The notes: a model not told the origin generated them from the sequence alone. A stretch of DNA of 64,000 bases from Candidatus Omnitrophota bacterium (GCA_963662715.1 OY759724.1:460670-524669), one strand, 5' to 3'. Positions 3,830 through 46,849 are shown, counted from the first letter of the stretch. A program made the numbers and translations.

Positions 3830-3877
3830 TGATTAGGCTGGGAACGATACCTGTGTTCAACGGCTCCTTGGACAAGT

Positions 3878-20086: not shown

Positions 20087-20166
20087 TTTGGCAAAACATA
20101 AAAAAACATCTCTTAGCAAGGAATTCCGCCTTGGGAGATAATGAAAAATTAACCGAACGTGTTGAA

Positions 20167-20763
20167 TCAGTTCCATATCATCTCCGGTTTAACTTTTTTA
20201 AAGAATTGTAAGACCATCGCTGCGATGAGGCCATCCATCACCATAACGGGTATATGAGCCAGAAAAATCAATTTTGCTGAATTCCAAAAATGGTCTCCGC
20301 TTAAGACAAGAAAAACACTTAAAAGCAGCCCGCTTAAAAATACGGATAAAAAGCCCACGCAAAACCCGATAAGAGGTTCCGGGAGGATATGCTTGCGGAG
20401 GGCCGGGGAAAAAATCAAATAACAAACATAAGCTGGGAGGGCCATATTGAGAGTGTTGACCCCCAGACTCGTTAAGCCTCCGAACTGAAAAAGAACGGCC
20501 TGAAAAGCCAGGGCGATAAATATGGCACAAAAGCATGCCGGACCTAAGAGCAAACCTATCAGCCCGTTAAGAATCAGATGGACATTGCCCGGGCCCAGGG
20601 GGATATGGATCAATGCGGCGACAAAAAAAGTTGCCGAGAAAACAGCTGTCCGGACAATGTCCTTATCTTTCAGCTGCCACAGGCTCATTCCGACAGTCAC
20701 GGTCGTGAGAGCATAGCCGGCCGTTATAACAGGGAAGGACAAAACCCCTTCGGAAATATGCAT
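20167..20763 (-). CDS. cbiM: Ni/Co ECF transporter substrate-specific component CbiM/NikM
   Basis: Starts MHISEGVL (the metal-binding N-terminal Met-His of the CbiM family); polytopic membrane protein. Confidence 0.8.
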   Translation of the reverse strand: MHISEGVLSFPVITAGYALTTVTVGMSLWQLKDKDIVRTAVFSATFFVAALIHIPLGPGNVHLILNGLIGLLLGPACFCAIFIALAFQAVLFQFGGLTSLGVNTLNMALPAYVCYLIFSPALRKHILPEPLIGFCVGFLSVFLSGLLLSVFLVLSGDHFWNSAKLIFLAHIPVMVMDGLIAAMVLQFFKKVKPEMIWN

Positions 20764-20768
20764 GACCT

Positions 20769-21572
20769 TTATTCCATGTTATAAGCTTTTAACCACAAAA
20801 CAGCCCCGATCTCAACGGGCTTTTCTTCGTCTTCAAATTTGATAGTCTGCTTATCCTCATTCAGGGCCGCAAACCCCCACCATCCTGCTTTGGGAATAGC
20901 GTAGCTAAAAACCCCGTTGGCATCGCATTTGATCACCTGAGTAACAAAAGGCGCTTTCGGCGCGTGATAGCGGCCTGCTTCATTATAAAATTCCACCTCG
21001 ACTTCACTGAACGGGGCCGGACGGCCGTCGACCTTGACAACACCCTGAAAAACATTCCCGGCATAAATCCCGAACGGGCGGGTCAGGGGAACGATCTCGG
21101 TTTTTAACCCTACTTCAGAATCCCATCCTTCTTCTTTCCCGTAGGCATCAACAACAACCTTTGTGTAATGCACAATGTAACAATCTTCCGCCGGCTCCCA
21201 GTAAGGCTGGGGCACCATATAAAAAATATAGTCTCCAGGCCTTTTGATTTTATAATCGGTCTGCCATCCCTTGAATGCTTCTTTATCGGCATAAAGTTCA
21301 AAATTTAAGGACTTGAGACTTCCGCTCAGGTCTTCCTTTTGACCGTCGAACAACACTCCTGCCTCTGCCGGTTTTTCCATATTCATTGACACACCTTCAA
21401 AAGGATGGGCGAACATAATACGCAGCTTCAAGTCCGCGTCCTGTTGATTGTCAACGATGTCCTGGGAAGGGATAATCATCCCAAAATGTGCCCGGGCAGA
21501 CCCGGGGCCCCAGAATATTGCCAAAAACATGGTGACGGTAAGAACACGAAGGTTTCTCCTTTGTTTTTTCAT
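20769..21572 (-). CDS. DUF4198-type periplasmic component (NikK-like) of the Ni/Co uptake system
   Basis: Signal peptide; conserved His near the mature N-terminus ([11 protein letters not shown]); sits between nikR and cbiM. Confidence 0.5.
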
Positions 21573-21651
21573 CAGACATCCTCCTTGTGGAATTATCACA
21601 TAAATGTATTACTTTTATTAATTTCGTGTTACCAAATATGCAAAAAATTTT

Positions 21652-22047
21652 TCAGGTAATCGCGCTCATGACCAATTCCCCGTGCTTCATCCCTTTTATA
21701 GCGATGAGTTCATCAGCGATATTGCGCAGCTGAAAAGCTTTTCCCTTCAATGCGATTATTTCCAGGCAATTGTTATGATCCAGATGGACGTGCTGGCTGG
21801 ACAAGATAAGATGATGGTATTTATGTTGAATGTCGGTTGATTGATTCAGTAAGTCACGTTTATGGTGGTCGTAAACGAGAACCAGACACCCGCTGACAAT
21901 CTGATTGCTTTCCCACTTTTCTTCTACAATATTTTTTCGAATGAGGTAGCGGATCGCCTGAGAACGGTTGGGCAGTTTATGCTTTTTCACCAAAGCGTCA
22001 AGCTTCTCTAATAAATCATCTTCTAAGGAAACGCCGAATCTTTTCAT
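21652..22047 (-). CDS. nikR: nickel-responsive repressor NikR (ribbon-helix-helix + ACT-like metal-binding domain)
   Basis: [20 protein letters not shown] (RHH domain); C-terminal H…H-x-H…C nickel-site pattern (…[17 protein letters not shown]…). Confidence 0.8.
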
Positions 22048-29898: not shown

Positions 29899-31269
29899 TT
29901 ACGGTTCCGCATTCAGAAAAACAATTAACAGCGTGGCGAGCGGGAAAATCTGCAGAATAAGCCGGCTGGCCGTATTATGCGAGTTGACGTGAACGGATAA
30001 AACAGAAGAAAATATCGCGAACATCAGGAATATCGATATAAACATGACGAGCCCGCCCAAAAGAACCTGAAGATTAACATCTTTCAATACTTTTCGCCGA
30101 TGAACAACCAGGCTCACGCACAACAGCAGCCAGGTGAGATTCCAGTTCGCCGACAGGAACAGACTCTCCCCGAATATTTTCATGACCGGAAGAATCGTCT
30201 CCTGCGGATTGCGGAAGTTCAGCGAAGCATAAGCCATCGTTGAAATGCCCCGGGACATTTTATAAACGTAATGGAGCAGCAGGATCGCCGTGCAGGGGAA
30301 CGCGTACTGCAGAAACAGTTTGGTTTTCGCCAGGCCCGGCAGGCTTTTTTCATGAAACAGAATATACATAAACAAAAGCAGTTGAACGACTAGATACGGA
30401 TTCCCTTCCACTTTTGTGAAGGTCCCGAACCCGACGAACAGGGAGGAAAGAATGAGCCAGCCTCCCTCCCGGCTTTTCCTCCACATGATCATGAAAAGGA
30501 CGGCCGAACACGTGTAATAAAGCAAGATGATATCCCGGTATTCCATCACCGCATGAAATAAAAGCAAGTTAGACGACAGAAGAAGAAAAATCCCATACAG
30601 CGCCCATTTCCTATTTATCAACTTATACAGGCAGTGACTGTAAATCAGCACAAAAGTCACAAAGTACAGCGGAAAAAAAATCTTGGTCAACTGGTCTTCC
30701 CAGAAACCGAAGTTACAGGAACTCCAGATAAAAAGGAAGGGCATCAGTAAAGGATAAACCGGGTACGGCACATGGGGCAAATTCTTCAGAGAGCCGTCGT
30801 AATAAAACAATTTTGCGTTATGCAGACTCGTTGAAAAAGAATCCCAGCCATATATGGGTAATTCAACGGCCCGGTTAAAAATAAAGAGCACATAATAGAT
30901 GCTTATGCTGAGAATCAAAGCGTGAACCAGTTTTTCCTTGCCCGTATACTCTTCCGAGAAAAAGCTGCCGCCCCACAGAGAATCCCCGTCCGCAAGAAGA
31001 CGGGACTTCCCCCCTTTATACTTCCTCATGCCGGCTATAAAGCATAAAACAATAAGAACGAGCTGGAAGAGGATAATCGCCTGCGGCCGGAATCCGATGC
31101 CGAGGATATCTAACAGGAGCATACCTTGCGAGAGGACGCCCAGCCCTAAGCCGTAAGACACGCTCATAACGACAAGCCAGGGCAACCGTATCGGCAGCAA
31201 ATTCAGGACGCCGAAACCGAGGATTAAGGGAAGAAGTATCGTGAGGACTAATGGAAAAACATGGGACAT
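29899..31269 (-). CDS. polytopic integral membrane protein (≥10 TM; possibly a GT-C-like or polymerase/ligase-like glycosyl-processing protein)
   Basis: Continuous hydrophobic helices, no soluble domain; lies within the GT2/GT-C cluster. Confidence 0.45.
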   Translation of the reverse strand: MSHVFPLVLTILLPLILGFGVLNLLPIRLPWLVVMSVSYGLGLGVLSQGMLLLDILGIGFRPQAIILFQLVLIVLCFIAGMRKYKGGKSRLLADGDSLWGGSFFSEEYTGKEKLVHALILSISIYYVLFIFNRAVELPIYGWDSFSTSLHNAKLFYYDGSLKNLPHVPYPVYPLLMPFLFIWSSCNFGFWEDQLTKIFFPLYFVTFVLIYSHCLYKLINRKWALYGIFLLLSSNLLLFHAVMEYRDIILLYYTCSAVLFMIMWRKSREGGWLILSSLFVGFGTFTKVEGNPYLVVQLLLFMYILFHEKSLPGLAKTKLFLQYAFPCTAILLLHYVYKMSRGISTMAYASLNFRNPQETILPVMKIFGESLFLSANWNLTWLLLCVSLVVHRRKVLKDVNLQVLLGGLVMFISIFLMFAIFSSVLSVHVNSHNTASRLILQIFPLATLLIVFLNAEP

Positions 31270-31270
31270 A

Positions 31271-31873
31271 TCAAGGGTTCTTTCTGACCGCTAACAGATT
31301 GTTCTCATTGACTTCATAAGCCACCACATAATTCTCCGGGACCGCATCACGGGCGTTTTCCTTGTTGAAATAGACGATGCATTCCGGAGGCGTCTGCTCA
31401 TGCGCCCGCAAGTTCACCTTGGGCAATAAGGCGTAGGCGATGATACGCAATGCGGTGGAGCCGGGATCCACGGAAGTATCCAGATCCGAGACTAAAACGC
31501 CCCGGCACGTCCCGGGGAAATTCCGCAACAATTCCCGGGAAAAATTATACGGCCCGCCGAAAAACAAAGATCTCTTTTCATGAGCGCTCAGGGAACGGAT
31601 CTTGGCATGCTGCATCTGAAAATACAGCATATGCCCCAGCGTCTGCAATACAGTTATGATGACGAAAAATGCCGTAACGAGACCGAGGGCTGATTTCTTC
31701 GGGTCAAACGGACCGGCGGCCAGCCCCCGGCCCCGTCTCAGCCCGCAAAAACAACACCCCAGCAAAAACAGCACGCCGATCATGATATAAATTTGAGAAT
31801 ACATCACCGCACTCTCACCGCGGAATCCGTTGAGAAACGGCTGGGGGTACAAACCTTTTAAAATATCCGACAT
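31271..31873 (-). CDS. membrane protein, function unknown
   Basis: Two N-terminal TM helices then a soluble domain; 1-nt gap to the upstream membrane protein gene. Confidence 0.4.
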   Translation of the reverse strand: MSDILKGLYPQPFLNGFRGESAVMYSQIYIMIGVLFLLGCCFCGLRRGRGLAAGPFDPKKSALGLVTAFFVIITVLQTLGHMLYFQMQHAKIRSLSAHEKRSLFFGGPYNFSRELLRNFPGTCRGVLVSDLDTSVDPGSTALRIIAYALLPKVNLRAHEQTPPECIVYFNKENARDAVPENYVVAYEVNENNLLAVRKNP

Positions 31874-31989
31874 ATTATGCCCTCACAAACACTATCCCCT
31901 CGTCAACTTACGGCCGTATCCCTTCCGGGCAGCAACAAGCACAGCCGCTCTTCGGGGACTCCCCCCGAAGATAGAGACAATATCGCCGG

Positions 31990-33435
31990 TTAAAAATAAC
32001 ACATATTGTTTATAAAACTCACATTGATATTAATGAGAACCGTTTTGAGCAGGCTTACGATTAACAACCCCGTCCATAAAATATACGATAATTTCTTCAG
32101 GACATCCTGTGGCATGAACATGATTTTTTGAAAAACAAAAGCCCACGTATGCGCGCCCAATATCATTAAGAAAGGAATCGCCATCAGAATATACCGGGAC
32201 TGGTAATTCCCGTAAAGTGAATAAAAAATAAAATAGACGATGACATTCATTTTCATCCAGCCAAGAAAGCGTGCGTCTTCCGGGGTTTTCATAAAAAAAG
32301 CCGCGTAAGCCACAACGGATAACAGCGAAAACTCCACAAGTTTCCGCAAATAAAACAAACAGCCGTATTCCTGGATAAAATCCGCATGGAACCATGTTGT
32401 CTGGGGGAAGTGAGAGAAAGAGCCCCCCCTCATCAAGGGTTCCAACAAAAAATACGCGAGAAACAGGATGACGGACGGACGGATGATACGGATATGGTCG
32501 GCCTTAAACTGAAAGCCCGGTTCCGCCCCGGCCTTTTTCCGTTTAGCCGCAAGGATAACAGCACCAAAGAAACAGGCTAAAAGAACCAGAATAAATATCC
32601 GGCTTTTCACAGAAACAGAAAAGCCGTGTTCTCCGAGGAATTGATAAATATAATTCCCCCCGTAGACATGGAAATTCCAGAAAATCCACGGGACGGCCAT
32701 CAGTATCGGCAAAAAAAGGCTTATGAGGAACAAAGGTTGTTTGAGCGTTCTTCTGTCATAGAAATATACCGACAGCAGGACAGAAATACTTGTTAAGAAA
32801 CCGGGATATTTTGTGAGTCCGGCCAACCCCACAGAGCAGCCCCCCCACAAAAACAGCGCAGGATTATGGGTCTGAACTCCTTTGATATAGAAATAAACGG
32901 CCAAAAGGACAAAAAACGTCAACGTCGTGGACAACCATATCTTTTGGGAACAAATAATGCTGACGGGATCGCTGGCAGCAAGCAACGCAGCCAACAAACT
33001 GACTTTACGGCTGCAGCAGGACCGGCTCAAGAGATAGACACAGGGAATGGTCAGGCAGCCGAAAACAAGTGAAACGAATATAACGGCAAACGGTTTAGTC
33101 CCGAAGATCTTCAAGGATAAAGCGACAAGATAAGAATATACCGGAGGATGCTTAAAAAGCGGTCTGAACATATACGGCGGGAGTCCTTCGGGAGAAGAAT
33201 GGTGTTCAACAAATCCCTGTGTGTTATAGGCCAACGGATCTTTTTTCAGCTGGCGGGCGATACAAAAATACACATTTTCGTCAGTCGTCACCCGCTTTTC
33301 TCTTGTGCTGATGCTGAAGGCCGCAAATCTTGTCCCGAAAGAGAAAACCGTAATAACGGATAATAACACAAAAACCAGAACAGACCGGCTCTTTTCCGAT
33401 GCGGGTACCCGTTTAATGAGATTCAGTGTATGCAA
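31990..33435 (-). CDS. GT-C-fold glycosyltransferase of the ArnT/PMT (GT39/GT83) type
   Basis: N-terminal TM + first-loop motif (…FGTRFAAFSISTREKRVTTDENVYFCIARQL…FKHPPVYSYLV…), then >10 TM helices; 481 aa. Confidence 0.6.
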   Translation of the reverse strand: MHTLNLIKRVPASEKSRSVLVFVLLSVITVFSFGTRFAAFSISTREKRVTTDENVYFCIARQLKKDPLAYNTQGFVEHHSSPEGLPPYMFRPLFKHPPVYSYLVALSLKIFGTKPFAVIFVSLVFGCLTIPCVYLLSRSCCSRKVSLLAALLAASDPVSIICSQKIWLSTTLTFFVLLAVYFYIKGVQTHNPALFLWGGCSVGLAGLTKYPGFLTSISVLLSVYFYDRRTLKQPLFLISLFLPILMAVPWIFWNFHVYGGNYIYQFLGEHGFSVSVKSRIFILVLLACFFGAVILAAKRKKAGAEPGFQFKADHIRIIRPSVILFLAYFLLEPLMRGGSFSHFPQTTWFHADFIQEYGCLFYLRKLVEFSLLSVVAYAAFFMKTPEDARFLGWMKMNVIVYFIFYSLYGNYQSRYILMAIPFLMILGAHTWAFVFQKIMFMPQDVLKKLSYILWTGLLIVSLLKTVLININVSFINNMCYF

Positions 33436-33679: not shown

Positions 33680-34456
33680 ATGAATCTTACTAAAGAACTA
33701 GAAATATCCCAAACAGCCGCACAGCGGGCCGCGGAAGCCATTTTAGACATATATCACGGCCGGGCATTTCAAGTCGAGATGAAAGACAATAAAAGCCCGC
33801 TGACTTCAGCCGACAAGAAAGCCAATGACATTATTGTTAAAACCCTCTCCGAAACCTTCCCGGACTATGCGCTGCTGTCTGAGGAATCCCAAGACGACCG
33901 CCGCCGGTTAGCCAATAAATGGTGTTGGATTGTCGACCCTCTGGACGGCACGAAGGAATTCATAAAAAGAAACGGGGAGTTCACGGTCAATATCGCGCTT
34001 TCCTATGAAAACAGGGCCGTGCTCGGGGTGATCTATGTCCCGGTGACGCACGAAATGTATTATGCGGTGAAAGGTCAAGGGGCCTATCATGTGAAAAACC
34101 ATCATGCTTGTAGGATTTATGTTTCCGAGCGGAAGAAAGACATACGGCTTGTCATGAGCCGGTCACATGCCTCGGAACAGCTGCAGCGTGTTATCGATAA
34201 AAACGCGATCACCGATATCAAAAAATCCGGCAGCTCTTTAAAGGGGTGCCTGGTGGCCCAGGGCGCAGCAGAGATTTATTACCGCTTCAACCCCACGATG
34301 GAATGGGATACGGCGGCGATGCAGTGCATTGCAGAAGAAGCCGGAGGGATTTTCCGGCAATTGGATGACTCCGAAATGTTGTATAACAGGGAAAACAGCT
34401 TAAACAGCCGGGGATTCTATGTCCTTAACTGTGCGGACAACAAACTGGAACTCTGA
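33680..34456 (+). CDS. cysQ: 3'(2'),5'-bisphosphate nucleotidase CysQ (inositol monophosphatase family)
   Basis: WIVDPLDGTKEF metal-binding motif; …SEES… upstream acidic motif; 258 aa. Confidence 0.8.
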   Translation: MNLTKELEISQTAAQRAAEAILDIYHGRAFQVEMKDNKSPLTSADKKANDIIVKTLSETFPDYALLSEESQDDRRRLANKWCWIVDPLDGTKEFIKRNGEFTVNIALSYENRAVLGVIYVPVTHEMYYAVKGQGAYHVKNHHACRIYVSERKKDIRLVMSRSHASEQLQRVIDKNAITDIKKSGSSLKGCLVAQGAAEIYYRFNPTMEWDTAAMQCIAEEAGGIFRQLDDSEMLYNRENSLNSRGFYVLNCADNKLEL

Positions 34457-34596
34457 ATCTAAGAAATAACATTCCAACCTTTTACTGGGCCCACCTATAG
34501 TACCACTACTATAAACGACAATACATTAGTTAAGATTATTTGCCTTAAGATATCGCGGAAGGTCTCATGAAATGGGTCAAAGAGGATTCTTTTCCG

Positions 34597-36399
34597 TTAA
34601 GAAGATAAATTGGTATGAATCAATTCTAATATTTTCTCAACCACTTGCTCTCGCGGACTGTGTTCTGCAACATGCAAATCAGCCATCCCGGATGAGGAAT
34701 CCTCATCCCCCACCCAGACCGTTTTGATCTGGTCGTCATCAATCGAGGTATGAATGATCTCCAGGTCAGACTTTTGCAGCTCTATCGCCGTTATAATCAG
34801 TATTGTCCCCATATTCAACATGATGTTGGCGACCTCCGCAAGCCGGCGGAAATGTTCCGGGTGAGTGTCGGGATCATTCGTTAAATCAGCATCCAGACCG
34901 TGAATGACGTTACCGATCCCCAAGAAGTAAACCAGCTTTCCCTGCATAAAGAGCCTTTCCTCCAAGGCCCGGGCTATTTCTTTGCGAGGGGCATCCCGCC
35001 GTCCGGTTATTAAAATCAAAGCGGCTTTCTGCCCATATCTTTCAAAACGCTGCTCCCGGGAAATATTGCTCATAATCCACCGGTAATTGCGTTCGATGAC
35101 CATTTGCCTGACCTGGGATTGGGCGTCCTCGAGCGCCTCATAAATAATCCCGCCGCCGGATATGTTGTTTTGGTCAACAATAACGAATCTGCTGGTCGGG
35201 CTTATTCTGTCAGCCAGATCAAAGGCGATGGCCCGCGGCATTTTCAAAATGCACTTTGCCACCTCGTGGCGGGCAATCTTCTGGGCCGTATCAGTGCTGT
35301 CCAGGTTGGACGCGTTGAGGACTTGTTCTATTTTTTCAATCTCTACCGGGACTTTCATAGTCCCGAGTTTGAGATGATATGTTTTACCCAGCTCCATGGG
35401 AGCCCGTCCCATCCAGAATAAATTAACCTTAATTCTGGAGGTGACCTCCGGGGGATGGCCATGAAAAGCGGTTAACATTTCTCCTCTTTTAACATAAATC
35501 TGCTCGGTTAACGTCAGTCCAACAGCATAACCGGCCCCGATCCCCGGCACAGCAGGCTGGTTAAACATTTCAATGGATTTGACATAGCTCTTCTTGCCGG
35601 AGGGATAAAAAACAACTTCATCCCCCACGTTGACGGTTCCGGTACTGATCGTTCCGCTGATGATACGGCGGTCATCCTGGAACTTCGTGAATTTATAAAT
35701 ATCCTGGACCGGCATCCGCAACGGCAAATTTTCATCAATATCCTTTTTATGAAATTCATCTAATATTTCAAAGACGGTTTTCCCGAAGTACCAGCTTAAA
35801 TTCTCCTGCCGTTCGGAAATCATATCTCCCTCCCGTCCGCTGACGGGGATAAAACATGTCGCCTGAATTCCAATCTTTTCCAAAAATTCCTGATACTGTT
35901 GACTGATTTGTCTGAAAACATCCTCCTCATAGGAAACGAGGTCCATCTTGTTCACGAGGACAGCGACCTGTTTTATTCCCAGCATAGACAGCATGTAGCC
36001 GTGTCGGCAGGAATTCTCCTGAACCCCCTCCTTGGCGTCGATCACTAAAAGGGCCGCTTCGGCCCGCGCAGCCCCGGTGACCATATTCTTCAAGAACTCG
36101 ATATGTCCCGGAGCATCAATAATGATGTAGTGGCGTTTGGACGTCTTAAAAAAAACCCTGGCAGAATCTATGGTAATGCCCTGGGCTTGTTCATCCTTTA
36201 AAGCGTCTAACAGAAAAGCATACTCGAAGGGTTTGGAATTATTTTCACATTGCTGACGGACCTGCTCAAGCTTCCCCTGGGGCAGAGAGCCGGTATCTGC
36301 CAGCAGGCGGCCCACGATAGTGCTTTTGCCGTGGTCAACGTGTCCCACAATAACGATATTCATGAATTGAGATGTCATAATATTAAAGAGTTGCCGCAA
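34597..36399 (-). CDS. cysN: sulfate adenylyltransferase GTPase subunit CysN fused to a degenerate APS-kinase-like C-terminal domain
   Basis: G1 [16 protein letters not shown]3 DAPGH, G4 NKMD. The C-terminal ~170 aa align to the APS kinase fold (…[11 protein letters not shown]…) but the P-loop is replaced by [11 protein letters not shown]. Confidence 0.85.
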
Positions 36400-36460
36400 C
36401 TATATATTGATTAACCGAAACAATGTCCTGAACAAAACTCGAAAGCCGGCCGGTTCCGCC

Positions 36461-37342
36461 TTACATATAACCTTCTCTTCTCAAGGTTTCCAGCCCCCCG
36501 CCGTCATCTTTATCCTGCGCCCGGCCGGAACGCTCAGCGATATTGGAAAATTTACCGGTCCTTAATTCTTCGATGATATCATCGACGTTCTTAGCGGTAG
36601 ATTCCACCGGGAGAGTACAGGGATAACAGCCGAGAGACCGGTAGCGCGTTCCCTTTCCCTGATCATAATACAGAGAAACGGTCGGAATCCCTTCTTTTTT
36701 GATATATTCCCAGATATTCAACTCCGTCCAATCCAGCAAAGGATGAATCCTTAAATGTGTGCCTTCAGAAAAATCTGTATTAAACTGATCCCAAAATTCC
36801 GGCGGCTGATCGCCAATATCCCAAAGGCTCTCTTTGTCCCTGGGGGAAAAATACCGCTCTTTGGATCTTGAGCCCTCTTCATCGGAGCGAATGCCGACGA
36901 TGACCCCGGTGAAGGACTCGGTGCCTGTATATTCCTCATAAAGATCCTTGTCATGATTGAAACGGAAACGCGGCCCTGTTCCCTCCAGCGTACTCTTAAG
37001 GGCGTCGGTTTTAAGAAGCCGGCAGCAGCGCAGACGGTCCACTTGTCCGTCCGGAAAAGTTTGTTTTTCTGCCAGAGCCGCCTGATTCTGGCCGTAAAAC
37101 ATATTCAAATGCCATTCCCGGGTGAGCCGGTCACGATATTCGATCATTTCCGGGATCTTATACGCTGTGTCGATATGCACCAGGGGGATCGGGACGTGCC
37201 CGAAAAACGCCTTGCGGGCAAGCCACAACAGCACAGTACTGTCCTTGCCAATGGACCAGAGCATGCAAAGATTTTTAAAATTCGCATAGGCTTCTCTCAA
37301 GATATAAATACTTTTATTTTCGAGTTCTGTTAAATGGTCCAC
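36461..37342 (-). CDS. cysD: sulfate adenylyltransferase subunit 2 CysD (PAPS-reductase-like ATP-PPase fold)
   Basis: PP-loop [12 protein letters not shown]; 293 aa; immediately upstream of cysN. Confidence 0.85.
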
Positions 37343-37370
37343 ATCCGGTGCCCTCGTTAAAAATACACGC

Positions 37371-38096
37371 CTATATATTCAAATAGCGGTCTATTTGTTT
37401 TTTAAGGCAAGAAAATGTTTCTTCTACCGTCTGCCCCTCGGTCTTGATAACAATTTCAGGGTTCTGCGGTCTTTCATAAGGATCATCGATACCCGTAAAA
37501 TATTTGATTTCTCCGGCCCGAGCCTTTTTATATAATCCTTTAACATCACGCTGTTCACATATCTCAATCGGCGTGTCGACATGAATCTCCACAAAATTTT
37601 GACACAAATCGCGGACAAAATTGCGGGCATCCTGATAAGGCGAAACAAAGGAAGACACAACAATAACTCCGTTACGTTCAAGCATAGAAGCAAGAAATCC
37701 GACCCTCTTGATGTGATTATCCCGTTCTTCTTTTGTAAAACCGGTCTTAGGGAAGACCGAACGGACGACATCCCCGTCTAAACGCTCCACCCGCAATCCC
37801 TTTTCGGCGATATAATCGTAGGCCCGGCTGGCCAGCGCGCTTTTCCCGGACCCGGATAATCCCGTAAACCAGAGAACAAAAGGTTTGACGCTTTTTTTGC
37901 CGAAAGAGATTTTATTCCAGACACGTTCATGAAAGAAATATAAAATCATCTTTGCAATAATTTCAATGCCTCCCACAGACACGGCCAGGAAAAATCTTTT
38001 CGTAAAAAAATAAACAATGGTGCACGTCGTAATCGTTGCCCAAATACGCCAGGAAATGGTCTTTAATATCGACCGGCTTCTTTTTTCAATATACAT
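37371..38096 (-). CDS. cysC: adenylyl-sulfate (APS) kinase CysC with an N-terminal ~70-aa two-TM (DUF2061-like) extension
   Basis: Intact P-loop [13 protein letters not shown] and LDGDVVR motifs. The N-terminus ([31 protein letters not shown]…[17 protein letters not shown]) is hydrophobic. Confidence 0.8.
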
Positions 38097-38512
38097 CTCT
38101 AGAATTCAACGTTTTAAGATTAATCCAAATATCTTCCATGGGAAACCGATTCTGCGAAATCATCCGGTATCAGTTCGTTAATAGTAATATTATTATTTAT
38201 ATATTATATGATAAATGCTCGGATTCTTAAGCCTTTTATTTATTATTACAGGAACTCCTAAAATGTCCCGGCTTGTCCAAGAAGCCATATTCTTGGCCGT
38301 ACGAAAAGTACGCCGGGTTAGCCTGTATTGAATTTTGATATTATAATAAAGAGGGGACGGGTGTCAAGCCCAAATAGGGGTCTCCGGGCTGCGCTCTCCT
38401 CTCCCTGGAATATCTTTCCGGGCCGCCCCAACGACAGGGTTTCCCCCGGCAGAATCTGCCTTTCGGGCCCTTTGACGATCTTCTTAAAGAGAGGATATTA
38501 TCCAAACATTCT

Positions 38513-39305: not shown

Positions 39306-39722
39306 TTAAACTTTCTGACAGCTGTCGCAAATCCCGTCTAACTGCAGAAAATGGTCAACAATCCTGAAGCCATTGACACTTCTCTTGCGAAAAAGATCGC
39401 ATCCCGCAATCTCTCCGACTTTGCCGCACCGGATACAGACAATATGATGATGGTGGACCCCGCCTTCAGCATGGCACAGGCCGTAATAACGGTTATTGTC
39501 AAACTTATGTATGCGGGTCAAAATCCCATACTCTGTTAAAGACTCAAGATTCCGGTAAACGCCCGGCAGGCCGCACTGCCGAAATTTCCGGCGGAGTTTT
39601 TCATATACTTTCTCCGGAGTCAAAAACTTATTGTTTTTATAAAAGATTTCGATAATAGCGATTCTTTTGGGAGTGCTTTTTAAAGGACAACTTTGAAGTT
39701 TTTCAAGATATCTGTCCAGCAT
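39306..39722 (-). CDS. Fur-family metalloregulator (Fur/Zur/PerR type)
   Basis: Winged-helix N-domain; HHHH + CxxC (HHHHIVCIRCGK) and C-terminal CDSC metal sites. Confidence 0.75.
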   Translation of the reverse strand: MLDRYLEKLQSCPLKSTPKRIAIIEIFYKNNKFLTPEKVYEKLRRKFRQCGLPGVYRNLESLTEYGILTRIHKFDNNRYYGLCHAEGGVHHHHIVCIRCGKVGEIAGCDLFRKRSVNGFRIVDHFLQLDGICDSCQKV

Positions 39723-39826: not shown

Positions 39827-40684
39827 TTAAGGAGTAATTAATTTTAAAGATTTAGGCAGAATCTTAATGTGAACAGACTTATACCTCAAAATCTCCCCGT
39901 CGCTTTGAAAATGCTGCTTCGGATCGGATGTGATTTCGATTTCCCGGACCTGCCAGTGCCTCAGGAAGCCACGAAAAATATTCTTTCTTCCTTCAAAAAT
40001 ATTTTTTAAATCCGTATGATTGATAATAATAACGTCCAGCAACCCGTCATCGACCTGAATTTTAGATGATATGGAGATTCCCGGCAAACCCAAATTTCCG
40101 CTATTGGCGACAATGCACGCCAGGCCTCTTTCCTCGTACTCCTTCCCATCTAATGTTAACTGATACAGAGACGGAGTGGTTTTTAACGCCGCTTTTAAAC
40201 TGTTCAGCGCATAGGCCAGCCACCCGATCCTGGTCTTGATATCCGGTTTTGTCTCTCTGACAACTTCGGCCTCAAAACCGCTGCTCACTCTTATCAAAAA
40301 ATACTTGTGCCCCATCTGTCCCACATCAATCTCCCGGATACGATGCTGGCCCAGGCACAAATTAACCGCTTTCTCAACATCCTGGGCTATTCTTAATTCA
40401 TTGGAGATCACGTTAGCCGTGCCGCCCGGGAGAATAAGCAACGGGGTTTTTCCGCCAATCAAGGCTCCAGCGGCTTCCTGGACCGTTCCGTCCCCGCCGT
40501 AAATAACGATCACATCCGCGTTTTCAGCAACCGAAAGCTTCACAAACCGGGAAACATCCTCTTTGTTTTTAGTGACGTGCACGTCCCAGGACACCTTCTG
40601 GCGGGACAACACTTTATTTAAAGTGTAAAGGACCGGGTATTTCATGCCCGATGAGGGATTTATGATAATGCTTAACCGTTTCAT
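39827..40684 (-). CDS. DAGK-catalytic-domain lipid kinase (YegS/sphingosine-/ceramide-kinase-like)
   Basis: LSIIINPSSG…VIVIYGGDGTVQEA…LPGGTAN are the canonical DAGK_cat motifs. Confidence 0.75.
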   Translation of the reverse strand: MKRLSIIINPSSGMKYPVLYTLNKVLSRQKVSWDVHVTKNKEDVSRFVKLSVAENADVIVIYGGDGTVQEAAGALIGGKTPLLILPGGTANVISNELRIAQDVEKAVNLCLGQHRIREIDVGQMGHKYFLIRVSSGFEAEVVRETKPDIKTRIGWLAYALNSLKAALKTTPSLYQLTLDGKEYEERGLACIVANSGNLGLPGISISSKIQVDDGLLDVIIINHTDLKNIFEGRKNIFRGFLRHWQVREIEITSDPKQHFQSDGEILRYKSVHIKILPKSLKLITP

Positions 40685-40806
40685 AAAATATAATAATGTT
40701 TTATTTCTAAATCTTTTTCTGACAGCCCACCTTCAGAATACACCACATCTTTTTTCGGGATCGAAAAAAAGACATCGGGATGCGTTTCGGCTTTATGCCG
40801 GCTCTT

Positions 40807-41199
40807 TCAGGCCCGCAGACTCTTATAGGAAATAAAAAAGATAATCATAAAAATCAGATCAAAGAATGCAAACGGGACCCAAATCCAGGGCATTTGACCT
40901 GCCAGCCAGTGCGGGAATACGACTAAGCAGTAGGAGAGCTTAATCAGGACAGCATAAATGATAAGACTCCTGTTGGCAAGGGGGTCCCTGGCGATATTAA
41001 AAAGCATATAGGCGAAAATGACCAAAATGCAGGCCGGGAACTGGACATACCCGATATGATTGGGCGGGGGGATCTGTACGGCATGAAAAATGGCCAGCGG
41101 CGCAATAAGAAAAGCGGCTCCGAGAATACCGTCATAAAACGCTGCCACGATATAAAAGGGTTTGATCCATTTAGGGATATTCATATTTTCCTCTTTCAT
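40807..41199 (-). CDS. small four-TM membrane protein, unknown function
   Basis: Hydrophobic throughout; lies between the UbiA gene and lipid kinase 1. Confidence 0.4.
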   Translation of the reverse strand: MKEENMNIPKWIKPFYIVAAFYDGILGAAFLIAPLAIFHAVQIPPPNHIGYVQFPACILVIFAYMLFNIARDPLANRSLIIYAVLIKLSYCLVVFPHWLAGQMPWIWVPFAFFDLIFMIIFFISYKSLRA

Positions 41200-41234
41200 T
41201 TTTTATTTATAAAATATTGTATCAATTTTTTCCG

Positions 41235-42206
41235 CTAAGCCAAAGCATCTTTATGAAAATCAAATAACCAGCCAATAAGGACAAAATTGATCAGGTAAAG
41301 CATCCCGGAAAGAAACGGATGCAGCAAAGCTATAAAACCGGTCTCATAGAGTACCGCGCCCCTGAATGTCCATTTCAGCGAGTAATATGTCTTTTCACCG
41401 TGTGCGTTCCGAAAAAACAACACGGCCGTGTACTGCATGATCAGAAAAGTCAATACCATCAATCCCGTAAAAAAGGGATTAATACAGCCTTTCCAGGGAT
41501 CGAAAAAGAACATGAAAACAACAATCCCGAAGGGAAGGCTGCTCATCATAACGTTCAGATATTTTGCTTTTCCGGGAGACAACTTGACAACAATCGTTTT
41601 GATCCCGGCCGCCTTATCCCCCTGATAATCTTTAAAATACGTATAAAAAGCGACTGCCACATTCATGAGAATCACGCCTAAAGCCAGGACAGCTAACTGA
41701 GCATCCGCCATAATTTCCAGCCCTTTTCCGTTCAAACACATGGCACCGTAATAAAGACACGGCGCAACAAGACAGCCAAAAACAATATTCCCCAGGATAA
41801 GAATTCTTTTGGAATATTCATAAACGATATTGAGGAGAAAAACGAGCACATACAGGGTTAAAGCATATGGATTTAATAGAAGCGTTATTCCGGCCCCCAA
41901 TACAAATAATCCCGCGCTTATACCCACAGCCGAACCGACCGGAAGTCGTCCCGTGACAAGCGGCCGGCGGGGCGCATTGATTCTGTCTTCTTTAAGTCCC
42001 AACAGATCATTGATGACCTGGTTGACGCCCCACCCCACAAAAACGACGGTCAAAACAAGCGCCGTTCTAAAAGGAGTGATCTCTGCCCCGCAGAATGCTA
42101 TCCCCAGGCACCCTGTCATGCCGGAGATAAAAAACAAATACGGACGCATGGATTTTATATAATTTAAAATAACACTCCTGGAAAATATCATACTAGACCT
42201 TTTCAA
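41235..42206 (-). CDS. UbiA-family prenyltransferase
   Basis: First Asp-rich motif NDLLGLKEDRIN (NDxxDxxxD-type); second motif YFKDYQGDKAAG; ~8 TM helices. The start overlaps the upstream gene by 14 nt. Confidence 0.75.
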   Translation of the reverse strand: MKRSSMIFSRSVILNYIKSMRPYLFFISGMTGCLGIAFCGAEITPFRTALVLTVVFVGWGVNQVINDLLGLKEDRINAPRRPLVTGRLPVGSAVGISAGLFVLGAGITLLLNPYALTLYVLVFLLNIVYEYSKRILILGNIVFGCLVAPCLYYGAMCLNGKGLEIMADAQLAVLALGVILMNVAVAFYTYFKDYQGDKAAGIKTIVVKLSPGKAKYLNVMMSSLPFGIVVFMFFFDPWKGCINPFFTGLMVLTFLIMQYTAVLFFRNAHGEKTYYSLKWTFRGAVLYETGFIALLHPFLSGMLYLINFVLIGWLFDFHKDALA

Positions 42207-44556
42207 TCAGACGCATTTTTTTATACAGGGGGACCTCTTCCTTGTTTTGAAACTGCTCCATAAGCTGCAGCGCATCCTCACCCGTTACTGGGAATGCCGT
42301 AATCTTCTTCTCTTCTATATACCGGCGTATCCTGCCATGCTCGGAATTACACAGCCAACTTAGACACGGCTTCTTAAAATGTGCCCTCATACGGTCAAAA
42401 ATCACAGAAAAAGGCTCCTCTTGAACATTGCCGCAGGAAACATTTAAAAATTCACAGGGCTGAATTTCTCCGTGAGCGTTCACATAAAAACGCTCGATTC
42501 CCCCGGCCGTGCATCCGAAGGCCTCGGGGGAAGATTCAAAAACCTGCATGGAAAGCGACGGGAAATCCCGAAGCTCCCTGGCCTTGTTCAAACGCCAGTG
42601 ATCGGCGCAAAGACGGGCGATCAGCTCCCGATCCATTAAAGTGTTCCCCCTCCGGAGCCATCCCCCGGCAGGTTTTTCATGAATAACCTGCACAAAACTG
42701 CAGCCTAGTTCCCTGCCAAGCTGCAATATCTTTTTTATGCCGTCATCCATTATCATCTCCCGGGAAGGACAGCAATTGATGACAGCCGTAACACCTGTAT
42801 CTGCAAATATGCGGATCGCCTTGCAGGCGATCCGAAAAGCTCCTTCAAAGCCCACAAACTCATCGTGCTTTTCAGCCTCCCAATGATGCAGGGAGACCAT
42901 CACTCCGAAAAGTCCGGCCTGCCGGAGACGCCAGGCCTTTTCATAAGTTAATGTGTGCCCCGTGGTGTTCACCCAGACTTCCCTCTCAGAGTCCAGAGAC
43001 CCGATGAGTTTTAGCAAACGTTCATATTTTAATAAAGGTTCGCCGCCTTCGATATCAAACATACTTATACCGGCATGCTGAATATCACGGGCGAGCCGCA
43101 AGAGATCGGCTTCCGGCAGGTCTTCACCGGCGTCACGTTTTTGATAGCAGTGCCGGCAGTGATACCCGCAGGCTTTTGTCATGGAAAAAACAACTGTTGT
43201 CGGATAGGTTGCATCATCGGTGATCAAAAATTTATCGATGGCTTTATAAAAAGCCCTGCTTGGAAAAGCCGGAAGATACAAATGTATTTTATAGACATTA
43301 TTTATTTTTACGGCCTTGTTATACCCGAGGACTTTCGAGAGGAGAAGCATTCTTTTAACGAAAAAAGCATACTGTTTCAAGGTTATCGCCCCCTTCAACA
43401 AACGGACGAAATACCGCAAAAAAATTGTCAGGCCCATTGTCACATCTAATAATATGCGGCCGAAACCGACAACAAACTGCTGTTGCAAGGGCCTCTGTCT
43501 GTCATAGGGGATTGGCAGGAAACCATTCTGCCGCCACCAGCGGACTGTTTCTGCGACACCCTGCTCCAGGGACACCGTCTGTTTAAAACCCAAAACATCC
43601 CCGGCTCTGGCCGTAGCATAAACATTATGACAATAAAACATCTTGACCCGGGCCCGGGTCAAAAGAAAAGGTTCTTTGGCTCCCAGGAGCTTCGCCATAA
43701 GTTCCAAAAACACGGCTGAAGGATAAAAGACCCACAAAGGGAGATATACCGGCGGTCTTATCCCTAAATTCCGGCAATATAAATTAAAATATTCCCGGAT
43801 GTTCGGGGCCCGGTCATTACCCATGTTAAAAACATGAACCCCGGATAAATCCTTTTCCAAGGCGAGCAGCATGCCCCGGACCAGATCTTTCACATGAATA
43901 ACGTGAAATCTATTGGTGCGTCCCATCGGCATGACCCGCATCCCCTGCAAGACAGCGCGGCAGAATTCATACGGCCCCGAATGAAACTCCCTGGGGCCAT
44001 AAACCCAGACCGGACGTATCACGACCAAATTCAAATCACCTTCCCCGGCTATGCCAACGGCTTCCTGCTCCGCCAGCATTTTCGTTTCGCGGTAATAATT
44101 CATATCTGACGGAAAAATAGCCGACAGAAAATATGGCATGTCCGGCCGGTAAGGGGCTTCTTCCGGCTTGGGCTTTTCTTCATCCTCTTCACCCAAAACA
44201 GCAATGCTGCTTACCAAAACAACCTTTTTCACTCTTTGCTCCTTGGCCGCACGAACAACATTGCGGGTCCCCTGAACATTGATTTCATGAAAGTCTTTCT
44301 TCCGGCCCCAGTCAGAAGCCAAAGCGGCCACATGAAAAACGGCGTCACAGCCGCTCATCGCTTCCGTCACTCCGGCAGAGTCCCTAATATCCCCATAGCA
44401 AATTTTGATCTTGTCTACCGGGAGAAACCGCAGATCACTGCCCGGACGCAGCAGAACCGTCACCTCATATTGACCGGCCACTAAACGGTCCACCAGATGA
44501 CTGCCGATAAACCCCGAAGCCCCGGTCACAAAGACTTTCCGTATTCCGCTGTTCAT
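42193..44556 (-). CDS. fusion protein: N-terminal extended-SDR NAD-dependent epimerase/dehydratase-like domain + C-terminal radical SAM domain with a SPASM/twitch-like Cys-rich extension
   Basis: VFVTGASGFIGSHLVDRL (Rossmann fold), YRETK (YxxxK); hydrophobic linker; CGYHCRHCY (CxxxCxxC); C-terminal FGCTAGG…GEIQPCEF…C…C auxiliary-cluster pattern; 787 aa. Confidence 0.8.
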   Translation of the reverse strand: MNSGIRKVFVTGASGFIGSHLVDRLVAGQYEVTVLLRPGSDLRFLPVDKIKICYGDIRDSAGVTEAMSGCDAVFHVAALASDWGRKKDFHEINVQGTRNVVRAAKEQRVKKVVLVSSIAVLGEEDEEKPKPEEAPYRPDMPYFLSAIFPSDMNYYRETKMLAEQEAVGIAGEGDLNLVVIRPVWVYGPREFHSGPYEFCRAVLQGMRVMPMGRTNRFHVIHVKDLVRGMLLALEKDLSGVHVFNMGNDRAPNIREYFNLYCRNLGIRPPVYLPLWVFYPSAVFLELMAKLLGAKEPFLLTRARVKMFYCHNVYATARAGDVLGFKQTVSLEQGVAETVRWWRQNGFLPIPYDRQRPLQQQFVVGFGRILLDVTMGLTIFLRYFVRLLKGAITLKQYAFFVKRMLLLSKVLGYNKAVKINNVYKIHLYLPAFPSRAFYKAIDKFLITDDATYPTTVVFSMTKACGYHCRHCYQKRDAGEDLPEADLLRLARDIQHAGISMFDIEGGEPLLKYERLLKLIGSLDSEREVWVNTTGHTLTYEKAWRLRQAGLFGVMVSLHHWEAEKHDEFVGFEGAFRIACKAIRIFADTGVTAVINCCPSREMIMDDGIKKILQLGRELGCSFVQVIHEKPAGGWLRRGNTLMDRELIARLCADHWRLNKARELRDFPSLSMQVFESSPEAFGCTAGGIERFYVNAHGEIQPCEFLNVSCGNVQEEPFSVIFDRMRAHFKKPCLSWLCNSEHGRIRRYIEEKKITAFPVTGEDALQLMEQFQNKEEVPLYKKMRLIEKV

Positions 44557-45482
44557 GAGACAATCACCTCTAAACTCTTTGGCAGCACCTCAATGGTTGC
44601 CGGGAGTTTCCCCCTCATGTCACCGTCGAATTCAATAAAGACGTCCTCCCGCTCCGAACAAACTTCAACCTTTCGGCCATAACGCATGCCCGCATGTTTG
44701 TACTCCATGAAATCACCGACATACAGTTTAGGGACGTTCGCAAGCAATGAAAACAAGCTGCCTTTTCTTAATGAGAACAAAAAAAGCTTCCCGTCATCAG
44801 GAAGCACATCACTAAAGACTCTCATCCCGGAAGCCAGATACGGATCTTTACCGACGGTTAAATTGATTAAAGATGTGAAGTCCGTCTTTTCTCCGTCTAT
44901 TTTCACTTTCAAATCAACACCCTGAAAATTCCAGACAGCTGTTAAGGAAGACACCAGCGTCCCCAGAAAATCCCCCAGGTATTTTCTATAACGTGAATTG
45001 GCCTTACCGGCGATATGCGGCCCAAGCCCCACGTTGACGCTGCTGCCGAAATAAAACACTCTTTCGTCTCCGGCCAGGTCCCGGAAAGAGACTTTGCCCA
45101 CATCAACGCTCCGGGTTCTGCCGGCCAACAAGGCTTCAAGGGCCTCATCAAGGCGGACAGGGATATGACAATACCGGTTAAAGTCAGGACTTGTTCCGAC
45201 GTGCAGTACGCCCAATGTCCTGGACGCGGCCGGGCTGTTCTGCCGCAGGCCCGTTATCACTTCACAGATCGTGCCGTCACCTCCGACAGCCACCACCACA
45301 TCATAATCCCTTTCCCCGGCCTGCCGTGATATATCGACGGCTTCATCCTTTCTCGAAGTCATCTGATAATCAAAATCAACCTTCCGGAGCTTCATTTCGG
45401 AAATAATCCGCCGGCACTGTTTATACGCACCGCCTGATCTGGCCGTCGGGTTCATAACCAAAAAATACTTCAACGGAGCCAT
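44553..45482 (-). CDS. second DAGK-catalytic-domain lipid kinase
   Basis: FLVMNPTARSG…VVVAVGGDGTICEV…LGVLHVGTSPDF; stop/start ATGA overlap with the downstream fusion gene. Confidence 0.75.
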   Translation of the reverse strand: MAPLKYFLVMNPTARSGGAYKQCRRIISEMKLRKVDFDYQMTSRKDEAVDISRQAGERDYDVVVAVGGDGTICEVITGLRQNSPAASRTLGVLHVGTSPDFNRYCHIPVRLDEALEALLAGRTRSVDVGKVSFRDLAGDERVFYFGSSVNVGLGPHIAGKANSRYRKYLGDFLGTLVSSLTAVWNFQGVDLKVKIDGEKTDFTSLINLTVGKDPYLASGMRVFSDVLPDDGKLFLFSLRKGSLFSLLANVPKLYVGDFMEYKHAGMRYGRKVEVCSEREDVFIEFDGDMRGKLPATIEVLPKSLEVIVS

Positions 45483-46660
45483 TCCGGCTTCTCCTGCTTT
45501 ATCTCCTCAAACGCTGAAATCGTTTTATCGATGTCCTCATCTTCCAGCAGGGCGTTCACCGTTAAACGGATCCGCGCCGTGTTCTTGGCGACGCTCGGAG
45601 GGATGAACGGGACGCCATAAATGCCCCGCTCGGAAAGCATTTTGGCAGCCAGGAACGTGTTTTCGCTGGTCTTAAACACAACCGACACCAGCGGGGTCGT
45701 TGAGCCGGTCAGGTTGAATCTCATCTGATCCAGGGCCTCATACAGCTTCCTGGCGAGCCGCATGATTTTTTCTCTTAGCCGGGGGTGATCTTCCACGTAG
45801 CGCAAAGAAGCGATGGTCGCTCCGGCCATAACAGGCGGCAATGCGGTTGAATAAAAATACATCGGGGCCTTATAACGGAAGCCGTCAATAATATCGGCCT
45901 TGCCGGCGATAAACCCGCCAAACGTCCCGACAGCCTTGCCGAAAGACCCGGTCATCAAATCCACATCCTGATAAGTGTCCGTCAGTTCAAGAATTCCCCG
46001 GCCTTCCCGCCCCAAGACCCCCAACCCGTGGGCATCATCAACGATCACAAAAGCGTCGTGCCTGCGGGCAACATCCGTGAGTTCTTTAAGCGGAGGGGTG
46101 TCTCCGTTGGTGCTGTAAAGCCCTTCCAGGACAATAAACTTGACGCGATAATGACAACACCGCAAGAGGGTCTTCTCAAGTTTGTTCATATCATTATGCG
46201 GGAAAATCTTAAACGCCGCTTTCGATAAGGCCACACCGTTTAACAGGGATGAATGAATCTCTTTGTCGGCAATAATAACATCGTTCTCCCCGGCCATGAG
46301 CTGAAACAGGCTCATATTGGCCTGATAACAGGAAGGAAAGACCAAAGCATCTTCCTGTTTAAGAAAACGGGCCGTAGCCAGTTCCAGTTCCCGGTTGACA
46401 GCGGACTGTCCGACGACAATAGGGGTCCCGCACAAACTCAAACCGAAAGTCTCTAAAATCTTCGTCGCCTCCTTCTTGATGACGGCATTATTAGCGATGC
46501 CCAGATAATCATTTGTTCCTAAAGAAACCATTTTTCTGCCGTTAACGGTAATTTCCCGGGCCAGCCCGCTCTGAACGATCTGATAATAGGCGTTGAAGTT
46601 TATATCGTCTGCCAGCTTTTTATCAATGTACAAGCTATCAATTAATTCTTTTTTGGACAT
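45470..46660 (-). CDS. PLP-dependent alpha-oxoamine synthase (serine palmitoyltransferase / BioF / CqsA family); Spt-like by context
   Basis: LGTNDYLGIANN substrate loop; PLP-lysine block TGSFGKAVGTFGGF; probable start MSKKELIDS; overlaps the downstream kinase gene by 13 nt. Confidence 0.8.
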   Translation of the reverse strand: MSKKELIDSLYIDKKLADDINFNAYYQIVQSGLAREITVNGRKMVSLGTNDYLGIANNAVIKKEATKILETFGLSLCGTPIVVGQSAVNRELELATARFLKQEDALVFPSCYQANMSLFQLMAGENDVIIADKEIHSSLLNGVALSKAAFKIFPHNDMNKLEKTLLRCCHYRVKFIVLEGLYSTNGDTPPLKELTDVARRHDAFVIVDDAHGLGVLGREGRGILELTDTYQDVDLMTGSFGKAVGTFGGFIAGKADIIDGFRYKAPMYFYSTALPPVMAGATIASLRYVEDHPRLREKIMRLARKLYEALDQMRFNLTGSTTPLVSVVFKTSENTFLAAKMLSERGIYGVPFIPPSVAKNTARIRLTVNALLEDEDIDKTISAFEEIKQEKPEWLR

Positions 46661-46849
46661 ACGCGTCTCCTCATGTTGTTTAACCCTGCCCTTAACTTGT
46701 TCACGTGCTGCTTTTCCGCCCCCTCTTATTCCAAAATGTGTTTCCCCCGGACAAAAGGCATGCCCTGATGACAAGAATCCCATTTCCTGGCGTCTGGCTT
46801 ACCGTGGGTGGCCGGCGTGAGGTGTGAAAATAATTTTGTCTACACAAAA

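Follow-up and report, generated by a model that had tools for sequence, protein, structure and literature searches.

A PAPS-supply locus of Candidatus Omnitrophota with a predicted pseudo-APS-kinase tail on CysN and a putative membrane hairpin on CysC

3'-Phosphoadenosine 5'-phosphosulfate (PAPS) is the activated sulfate donor, and its use leaves 3'-phosphoadenosine 5'-phosphate (PAP) as a by-product that is removed by CysQ. Among the closest described systems, NodP/NodQ of Sinorhizobium and CysD/CysNC of Mycobacterium tuberculosis are GTP-dependent ATP sulfurylases in which CysN is fused to an active adenosine 5'-phosphosulfate (APS) kinase, and rhizobial and mycobacterial PAPS also feeds sulfotransferases (PMC1780047; PMC4373884). 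Dead kinase-like domains on sulfurylases are already established for a fungal enzyme, the ATP sulfurylase of Penicillium chrysogenum, in which an APS-kinase-like domain without kinase activity confers inhibition by PAPS (PMC3734648). The two-domain APS kinase of Thiobacillus denitrificans (PDB 3CR8) has an inactive ATP-sulfurylase-like domain (cited in PMC3734648). Here we analyze cysQ and the gene cluster cysC-cysD-cysN at positions 33680-38096 of a 64,000-nucleotide stretch of DNA from Candidatus Omnitrophota bacterium (GCA_963662715.1 OY759724.1:460670-524669), which as a whole is called the window below. The nearest named relatives by YchF all belong to the Omnitrophota, with 'Candidatus Zapsychrus exili' first at 73% identity. 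Its CysN ends in a tail with the APS-kinase fold that appears to be catalytically dead, and its separate CysC starts with a DUF2061 helical hairpin.

We propose that this locus is a self-contained module for making and recycling PAPS, with a dead, structural CysN tail, a CysC held at the membrane and PAPS spent on sulfation, and we give this reading as a whole a probability of roughly 0.55. Judging from intact motifs and family membership, CysD and the GTPase CysN would convert sulfate to APS, the separate CysC would phosphorylate APS to PAPS, and CysQ would hydrolyze the PAP left by sulfuryl transfer. The CysN tail is most likely a remnant of a NodQ-type CysN-CysC fusion. Its role is presumably structural, either in dimerizing CysDN or in docking the free CysC via an APS-kinase-like dimer interface; docking would pass APS directly to the CysC kinase. 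The kinase, and with it perhaps the complete complex, is probably tethered by the DUF2061 hairpin to the cytoplasmic membrane, on its inner face. From the genomic context, the most likely consumer of PAPS is a sulfotransferase that modifies a glycan or lipid of the envelope, and not cysteine synthesis.

Gene set and the degenerate tail of CysN

The locus comprises the following genes and domains:

33680-34456, plus strand: cysQ, 3'(2'),5'-bisphosphate nucleotidase, 258 aa (TIGR01331; Pfam Inositol_P, E 1.5e-53)
34597-36399, minus strand: cysN, 600 aa counted from the first TTG (TIGR02034)
35125-36399, minus strand: GTPase part of CysN, residues 1-425 (TIGR02034; Pfam GTP_EFTU, GTP_EFTU_D2, GTP-eEF1A_C)
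34597-35124, minus strand: pseudo-APS-kinase domain predicted at the CysN C-terminus, residues 426-600 and the stop codon (partial Pfam APS_kinase match, AlphaFold, Foldseek)
36461-37342, minus strand: cysD, catalytic small subunit of the GTP-dependent ATP sulfurylase, 293 aa (NF003587; Pfam PAPS_reduct, E 4e-39)
37371-38096, minus strand: cysC, 241 aa (TIGR00455)
37371-37913, minus strand: kinase domain of CysC, residues 62-241 (TIGR00455, PDB 2YVU, motifs complete)
37914-38096, minus strand: DUF2061 helical hairpin at the CysC N-terminus, residues 1-61, putative membrane anchor or adaptor (PF09834)

A sequence-only reading of this DNA had recognized a four-gene PAPS-supply set, and this assignment holds: the open reading frames lie at these coordinates and all four products pass their NCBIfam cut-offs (CysQ, 246.4 against 228.8 bits with TIGR01331; CysN, 340.7 against 336.1 bits with TIGR02034; CysD, 349 against 195 bits with NF003587; CysC, 205.7 against 138.7 bits with TIGR00455). 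CysQ has both metal-binding motifs (DPLDGT, WDTAA), the GTPase motifs of CysN are complete (G1 GHVDHGKS, G3 DAPGH, G4 NKMD), and CysD has the PP-loop SIGKDS. The public protein record for cysN (P0001) is 588 aa long, consistent with a start at Met13. The transcription order is cysC, cysD, cysN, with cysD 61 bp upstream of cysN on the same strand. The same reading had described cysQ as divergent from cysN-cysD-cysC, which the gene spacing contradicts: cysQ and cysN are convergent, with their 3' ends 140 bp apart, and it is from an operon for PMT_2 glycosyltransferases that cysQ diverges, the two starts lying 244 bp apart.

The CysN tail has retained the outline of an APS kinase and little of its chemistry. 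An AlphaFold model of residues 426-600 (predicted local distance difference test, pLDDT, 77.5; predicted template modeling score, pTM, 0.76) has exclusively APS kinases as its top PDB matches in Foldseek, at template modeling scores (TM-scores) of 0.72-0.75. At the sequence level, residues 459-563 match only positions 2-107 of the 152 positions of the Pfam APS_kinase profile (E 1.4e-11). The tail stays below the threshold of TIGR00455 (47 bits against a cut-off of 138.7), and CysN stays below that of the bifunctional CysN/CysC model NF004035 (447.1 bits against 715, aligned over residues 9-563). Alignment to solved APS kinases gives TGRRDAPRK at the P-loop, compared to GLSGSGKS in kinases, and LGIGN in place of LDGDN.

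A MAFFT alignment of 120 tails from the pseudo-kinase family with 113 true CysC domains extends these losses to substrate binding, with APS-contact positions numbered as in Arabidopsis APS kinase. In the NVR motif, the Arg that contacts APS has become Ile in the window CysN and either Leu or Ile in the family as a whole. The stacking Phe is gone and its position is variable, and the APS-contact Asn is replaced by an invariant His. A second APS-contact Arg, which is His in the window CysN, is kept by roughly one half of the family. Conservation is poor within the P-loop, and the family lacks a block of 28 residues equivalent to the lid, the part that bears the catalytic Lys in the M. tuberculosis enzyme (PMC4373884). 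Because every element needed for catalysis is lost, the tail is predicted to make no PAPS, with the APS-kinase fold retained. The sequence-only reading had anticipated both the retained fold and the missing P-loop glycines, and the alignment shows that the losses also extend to LDGD, to the Arg and Phe that contact APS and to the 28-residue lid.

These losses are found throughout the family. The 120 best homologues of the window CysN, at about 60% identity, all share the same degenerate tail motifs and come from Halanaerobiales, Clostridia, Gemmatimonadota, Thermodesulfobacteriota, Calditrichota and others. No canonical Walker A (GxxxxGK[ST]) or LDGD motif occurs in the tail of any of 184 distinct family sequences, a result that rules out a P-loop decay confined to this genome. 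All 184 lack the Walker A Ser/Thr that binds Mg, the two Asp of LDGD and the complete lid, and the remnant of the P-loop falls into three classes: G-x4-GKK (115 sequences), x-RK (49, including the window) and GRK (14). A pattern scan with two tail-specific motifs, taking one genome per GTDB species, finds the tail in 523 genomes, including those of Planctomycetota, Spirochaetota, Thermotogota, Bacteroidota, Omnitrophota and Atribacterota. A profile search of 1.84 billion representatives of 50%-identity clusters returns 86 matches at E <=1e-30, which fits a compact, strongly conserved family. Conservation within the tail is indeed high, with 28 invariant columns in 13 sequences picked to be less than 62% identical. 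We thus regard the degenerate tail as a trait of a large, uncharacterized CysN clade, apparently under strong selection. In a full-text literature search, no paper found describes a degenerate APS-kinase domain on CysN.

Database names convey a different picture. Many homologues are called 'bifunctional enzyme CysN/CysC' by JGI, and 'GTP-binding protein' or 'sulfate adenylyltransferase' by NCBI. Taken literally, the KEGG- and JGI-style annotation would make the tail a working, non-canonical APS kinase and CysN truly bifunctional, and most family members do carry a Walker-A-like GxxxxGKK string. We give this explanation hardly any credence. The residues missing in all 184 sequences include, with the lid, its catalytic Lys (PMC4373884), the window protein is also without the second Gly and the Lys of the P-loop (GRRDAPRK), both model scores are sub-threshold as given above, and an intact kinase is encoded next to cysN in most genomes. 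The 'bifunctional CysN/CysC' label (KEGG K00955, JGI-style) consequently credits at least 523 species with an APS-kinase activity that is almost certainly absent, and a mislabelled CysN can mislead metabolic models as to whether a sulfur route is APS-based or PAPS-based.

The DUF2061 hairpin of CysC

In the case of CysC, the kinase itself is ordinary. Its domain matches positions 2-152 of the 152 positions of the Pfam APS_kinase profile, aligns over the full domain with PDB 2YVU (E 4e-48) and has intact catalytic motifs, FTGIDDPYE among them. The kinase motifs are preceded by about 70 residues, of which residues 10-61 match positions 1-52 of the 52 positions of DUF2061 (PF09834; E 6e-19, 68.6 bits compared to a gathering score of 23.1). 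Pfam describes this domain as a 'predicted membrane protein' and assigns no function to it. The AlphaFold model of CysC (pLDDT 84) has two helices, residues 10-32 and 35-62 (23 and 28 residues), followed by a low-confidence linker and a normal kinase domain.

The sequence-only reading had credited CysC with an intact P-loop behind an extension of about 70 residues with two transmembrane segments. The P-loop and the extension are confirmed; the two segments are upheld in part. By Kyte-Doolittle hydropathy (19-residue window, threshold 1.6), helix 2 reaches 1.83, above the threshold, and helix 1 about 1.1-1.25, below it, a point that counts against the predicted membrane insertion of the complete hairpin. 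Ten hairpin residues are invariant in 37 homologues (R8, K12, R17, E45, K49, Y53, H56, E57, R58 and W60), and the charged E45 and K49 fall inside helix 2. Such conservation seems to exceed what a passive anchor needs. On the strength of the DUF2061 hairpin, it is plausible that CysC is held at the membrane.

The fusion is widespread. The DUF2061 plus APS_kinase architecture occurs in at least 120 protein clusters at 90% identity, namely in all of the 120 best-matching ones. The relatives of the window CysN are all at about the same distance from it (59-63% identity), which gives no sign either way that CysN proteins linked to a DUF2061-CysC are its closest relatives. The window locus is an ordinary member of two widespread, uncharacterized protein variants. 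A full-text literature search found no paper that discusses a fusion of DUF2061 to APS kinase. Stand-alone DUF2061 members appear in gene tables only; one such gene shares a Mesorhizobium nod locus with nodH, nodP and nodQ (bioRxiv 10.1101/2022.04.26.489235), and datasets for Caulobacter and Shewanella list others as responding to iron or Fur. In the window, a Fur-family regulator is encoded two genes upstream of the DUF2061-cysC gene (39306-39722, minus strand). Fur control of the cysC promoter was considered and the idea dropped, as no nearby site reaches 13 of 19 Fur-box consensus positions.

Two relatives show variations on this gene. In a Caldithrix sp. (locus L057, 7086-7811), the DUF2061-APS-kinase keeps the Walker A motif GIPRSGKT, has LDSHD instead of LDGD and an altered lid, and the operon encodes a second CysC, a normal one, after cysN; the fused kinase may be a second, independent decaying copy. 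In another member of the Omnitrophota (locus L005, CP070797.1, 10001-11378), DUF2061-cysC is followed by a shortened cysD-like gene of 199 aa, there is no cysN within 10 kb, and the gene pair adjoins heptose-synthesis genes.

Genomic context and the use of PAPS

Pfam scans of approximately 68 open reading frames over the whole 64-kb window reveal no PAPS/APS reductase except CysD itself, no NIR_SIR sulfite reductase and no sulfate transporter; as regards the reductases, this agrees with the sequence-only reading. For comparison, we collected 85 loci, in which open reading frames were called and classed with locally built hidden Markov models, and neighbours were clustered and the clusters named by Pfam. 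Counts refer to those 31 loci in which the pseudo-kinase cysN is flanked by 5 kb or more on each side. CysD is encoded in 29 of these 31, and an intact APS kinase in 24, in 20 cases within 2.5 kb of cysN and in 8 abutting or overlapping it. Glycan-synthesis markers are present in 19 of the 31 loci, sulfate-assimilation markers in 10, and a Sulfotransfer_1/3 gene in 4. Relatives with a sulfotransferase gene in the cluster are L003, L048, L050 and L084.

A DUF2061-CysC is encoded in 13 loci (the window, L003, L004, L005, L030, L036, L040, L057, L068, L085, L086, L087 and L088), none of which has an assimilation marker gene (0/13). Most of them are embedded amid glycosyltransferase, sugar-nucleotide or capsule-export genes. 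The best match by arrangement is L003, where cysC-cysD-cysN are ordered as in the window and are directly followed by a Sulfotransfer_1/3 gene and a PMT_2 gene. In four spirochaete loci the operon lies between three GT4 glycosyltransferases and a pair of IspD-like and SDR genes; L004 and L005 adjoin heptose and sugar-nucleotide genes, L086 is a capsule-export locus, and L087 contains GT2 genes. The context thereby favours use of PAPS for sulfation over assimilation, being consistent with it and not proof. That PAPS is made for sulfation had been suggested from the sequence, and the suggestion gains support from the missing reductase in 64 kb, the 13 loci and the example of L003.

Several observations weigh against this reading. 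The Pfam scans find no Sulfotransfer_* family in the window, and a hidden Markov model of the sulfotransferases from L003, L048, L050 and L084, run against all six-frame open reading frames of at least 50 residues, finds none there either (best E 0.25). The absence of reductases covers the 64-kb window, and a cysH/sir set may exist elsewhere in the 3.36-Mb genome. Moreover, the pseudo-kinase CysN serves both assimilation and sulfation: since the same CysN type is found in assimilatory Halanaerobium and Clostridium clusters, the tail is not sulfation-specific. The assimilation markers (Na/sulfate symporter, AprA-like flavoprotein with ferredoxin, NIR_SIR-TusA) come mainly from these Halanaerobium and Clostridium loci, whose clusters with close CysN homologues also carry ThiS-ThiF and JAB genes, and 4 of the 10 assimilation-marked loci have at least two glycan markers.

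Two Halanaerobium genomes have two pseudo-kinase cysN loci each. H. saccharolyticum WC1 has one locus (L041) with an AprA-like flavoprotein, ferredoxin, NIR_SIR-TusA, ThiS-ThiF and JAB, of the assimilation type, and another (L017) with a sulfate symporter and glycan genes; both loci of H. kushneri (L008, L018) are of the latter type.

The alternative is ordinary assimilation, in which PAPS would be used by CysH, with the genes for CysH and for a sulfite reductase at another place in the genome; CysQ would then only clear the PAP that CysH makes. The close CysN homologues in assimilatory clusters and the lack of a sulfotransferase in the window speak for it, and CysQ fits both routes. Nevertheless, neither a reductase nor a sulfate transporter is found within 64 kb, the DUF2061-CysC loci have glycan and capsule genes, and once a sulfotransferase, where assimilation markers would be expected, and the neighbours of the window locus are glycosyltransferases and lipid-pathway genes. 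We consider assimilation possible, yet rather doubtful.

The neighbours of the cys genes in the window comprise two GT-C (PMT_2) and one GT2 glycosyltransferases, methyltransferases, an MMPL transporter, the Fur-family regulator and a lipid-type operon. Two further features of the surroundings are:

29899-33435, minus strand: three-gene operon of a PMT_2 glycosyltransferase, a 200-residue membrane protein and a PMT_2-like protein (PMT_2 E 2e-23 and 1e-4)
38340-38367, minus strand: promoter-like sigma-70 site, TTGACA-16 nt-TATAAT, 12/12 consensus, 244 nt upstream of the cysC ATG

The PMT_2 operon may belong to the pathway whose product is sulfated, its membership being uncertain. In L002, a homologue (E 1e-34) of the 481-residue PMT_2 protein of the window is encoded in one gene block with the APS kinase, and further PMT_2 genes are found near the same CysN type in L003, L037, L048 and L051. 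Jackhmmer searches with the 200-, 210- and 130-residue proteins of the window against all fetched loci returned no relatives. The L002 block itself (Deltaproteobacteria bacterium RBG_16_48_10, 1-7009) places the APS kinase amid three PF01663 genes (phosphodiesterase/alkaline-phosphatase superfamily), an acetyltransferase and the PMT_2 gene, and a TauE-family transporter adjoins cysD. A PHP-domain gene lies beside cysN or cysC in loci where CysQ is absent (L001, 12612-13427; L037, 10616-11452; L033, L057 and L080), and its product may be an alternative PAP phosphatase.

The perfect sigma-70 consensus falls within a gap of 416 bp between cysC and the next upstream gene, and for this reason cysC-cysD-cysN probably form their own, separate transcript, with a promoter recognized by consensus match only. 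An Rfam scan of the whole window gave 0 matches, the cysC leader (38097-38335) included, and the predicted fold of this 239-nt leader is no better than that of shuffled sequence (z = -1.8).

Overlapping genes form a further operon (39827-46783, minus strand) immediately upstream of the cys operon and the Fur-family gene. Its products are an alpha-oxoamine synthase resembling serine palmitoyltransferase (best PDB match 8GUH, E 7e-63), two lipid kinases of the DAGK_cat/YegS type, a UbiA prenyltransferase, a small membrane protein and a 787-aa fusion of an NAD-epimerase with a radical-SAM domain. It looks like an uncharacterized sphingolipid-like or other lipid pathway; a link with sulfation would be a guess. 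Farther away, a 1341-residue protein with DUF5649 repeats as its sole Pfam match (59966-63991, minus strand) is followed by two open reading frames (656 and 220 aa) without a family match. NikR, a DUF4198 protein and a CbiM/CbiQ/ABC-ATPase nickel/cobalt uptake system (18185-22047, minus strand) are ordinary and unrelated to the cys genes.

Role of the tail and comparison with described systems

A pseudo-enzyme domain that is kept at about 60% identity across phyla must have some role. Substrate channeling and product inhibition are classic features of sulfate activation, so that a role in docking or in regulation would be worth knowing. The fungal precedent of a kinase-dead domain that confers PAPS inhibition (PMC3734648) suggests one such role: the CysN tail could be an allosteric sensor of PAPS or APS that throttles ATP sulfurylase as in P. 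chrysogenum. The strong purifying selection on the tail would agree with this, and so would the residues that ring the former active site, i.e., the invariant polar K48, D78, D80, E90, H91, R93 and R94 (domain numbering) and, where the P-loop used to be, two conserved basic residues (G-x5-[KR]-K). The invariant polar residues could equally mean a retained ligand pocket, which speaks against a purely structural tail.

However, the contacts for APS and PAPS are gone across the family (NVR Arg to Leu/Ile, Phe variable, Asn to His), the lid, including its Lys and Phe, is deleted, the window protein has His in place of the second APS-contact Arg, and the P-loop interior varies. The tail is also present in assimilatory clusters. 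In addition, the window CysC aligns with the fungal domain over its full length (PDB 1I2D residues 392-554, E 2e-33), whereas the CysN tail aligns over half of that length only (residues 386-477, E 0.2); by alignment, the fungal allosteric domain is much nearer to a real kinase than the window CysN tail is. Feedback sensing through the pseudo-kinase, as put forward in the sequence-only reading, is therefore not supported, in view of the loss of the canonical Arg, Phe, Asn and lid, the assimilatory clusters and the 1I2D comparison, and we consider it quite unlikely.

A scaffold or dock for the real kinase seems more likely than a PAPS sensor. The dimer interface of M. tuberculosis CysC is formed by helices alpha2 and alpha3 (PMC4373884). 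Since the helices matching this interface are among the best-conserved stretches of the tail, homodimerization or docking of CysC would fit. In a bolder form, the CysN tail docks CysC and DUF2061 acts as a dedicated membrane adaptor of sulfation pathways, giving a membrane-bound sulfate-activation complex. This combination is tentative and, in our estimate, unlikely. If true, the complex would hand APS to the kinase and release PAPS beside membrane-associated sulfotransferases that decorate envelope glycans or lipids, and it would exist in hundreds of species of more than 10 phyla, so far undescribed.

The main value of this analysis is in an annotation correction and in two testable hypotheses, one giving the pseudo-kinase a docking role and the other making DUF2061 a membrane adaptor in sulfation pathways. 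The CysC fusion, the sulfotransferase neighbour in L003 and the rhizobial nod locus together suggest a link between DUF2061 and PAPS synthesis, which provides the first testable functional context for this domain of unknown function. For the poorly known, mostly uncultured Omnitrophota, the locus hints at a sulfated envelope component.

Compared with the described systems, the window CysN is organized as in NodQ and CysNC, with the same domain order, a GTPase followed by an APS-kinase fold, and CysD as partner. It differs in a tail without Walker A, LDGD and lid, such that the separate CysC presumably supplies the kinase activity. With the dedicated sulfation cluster nodPQ-nodH, the 64-kb window shares the absence of a reductive branch, but not the sulfotransferase gene. 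Similar to the P. chrysogenum enzyme (PDB 1I2D, 1M8P), a sulfurylase component bears a catalytically dead domain with the APS-kinase fold, yet the fungal domain is located on an unrelated Sat-type (PF01747) sulfurylase and keeps the full kinase length. The T. denitrificans enzyme 3CR8, with whose kinase domain the window CysC aligns at E 1e-39, likewise illustrates that a dead copy of the partner enzyme's fold can be retained in a sulfate-activation enzyme; here the arrangement is reversed with respect to the window CysN, an active kinase carrying a dead Sat-type sulfurylase domain.

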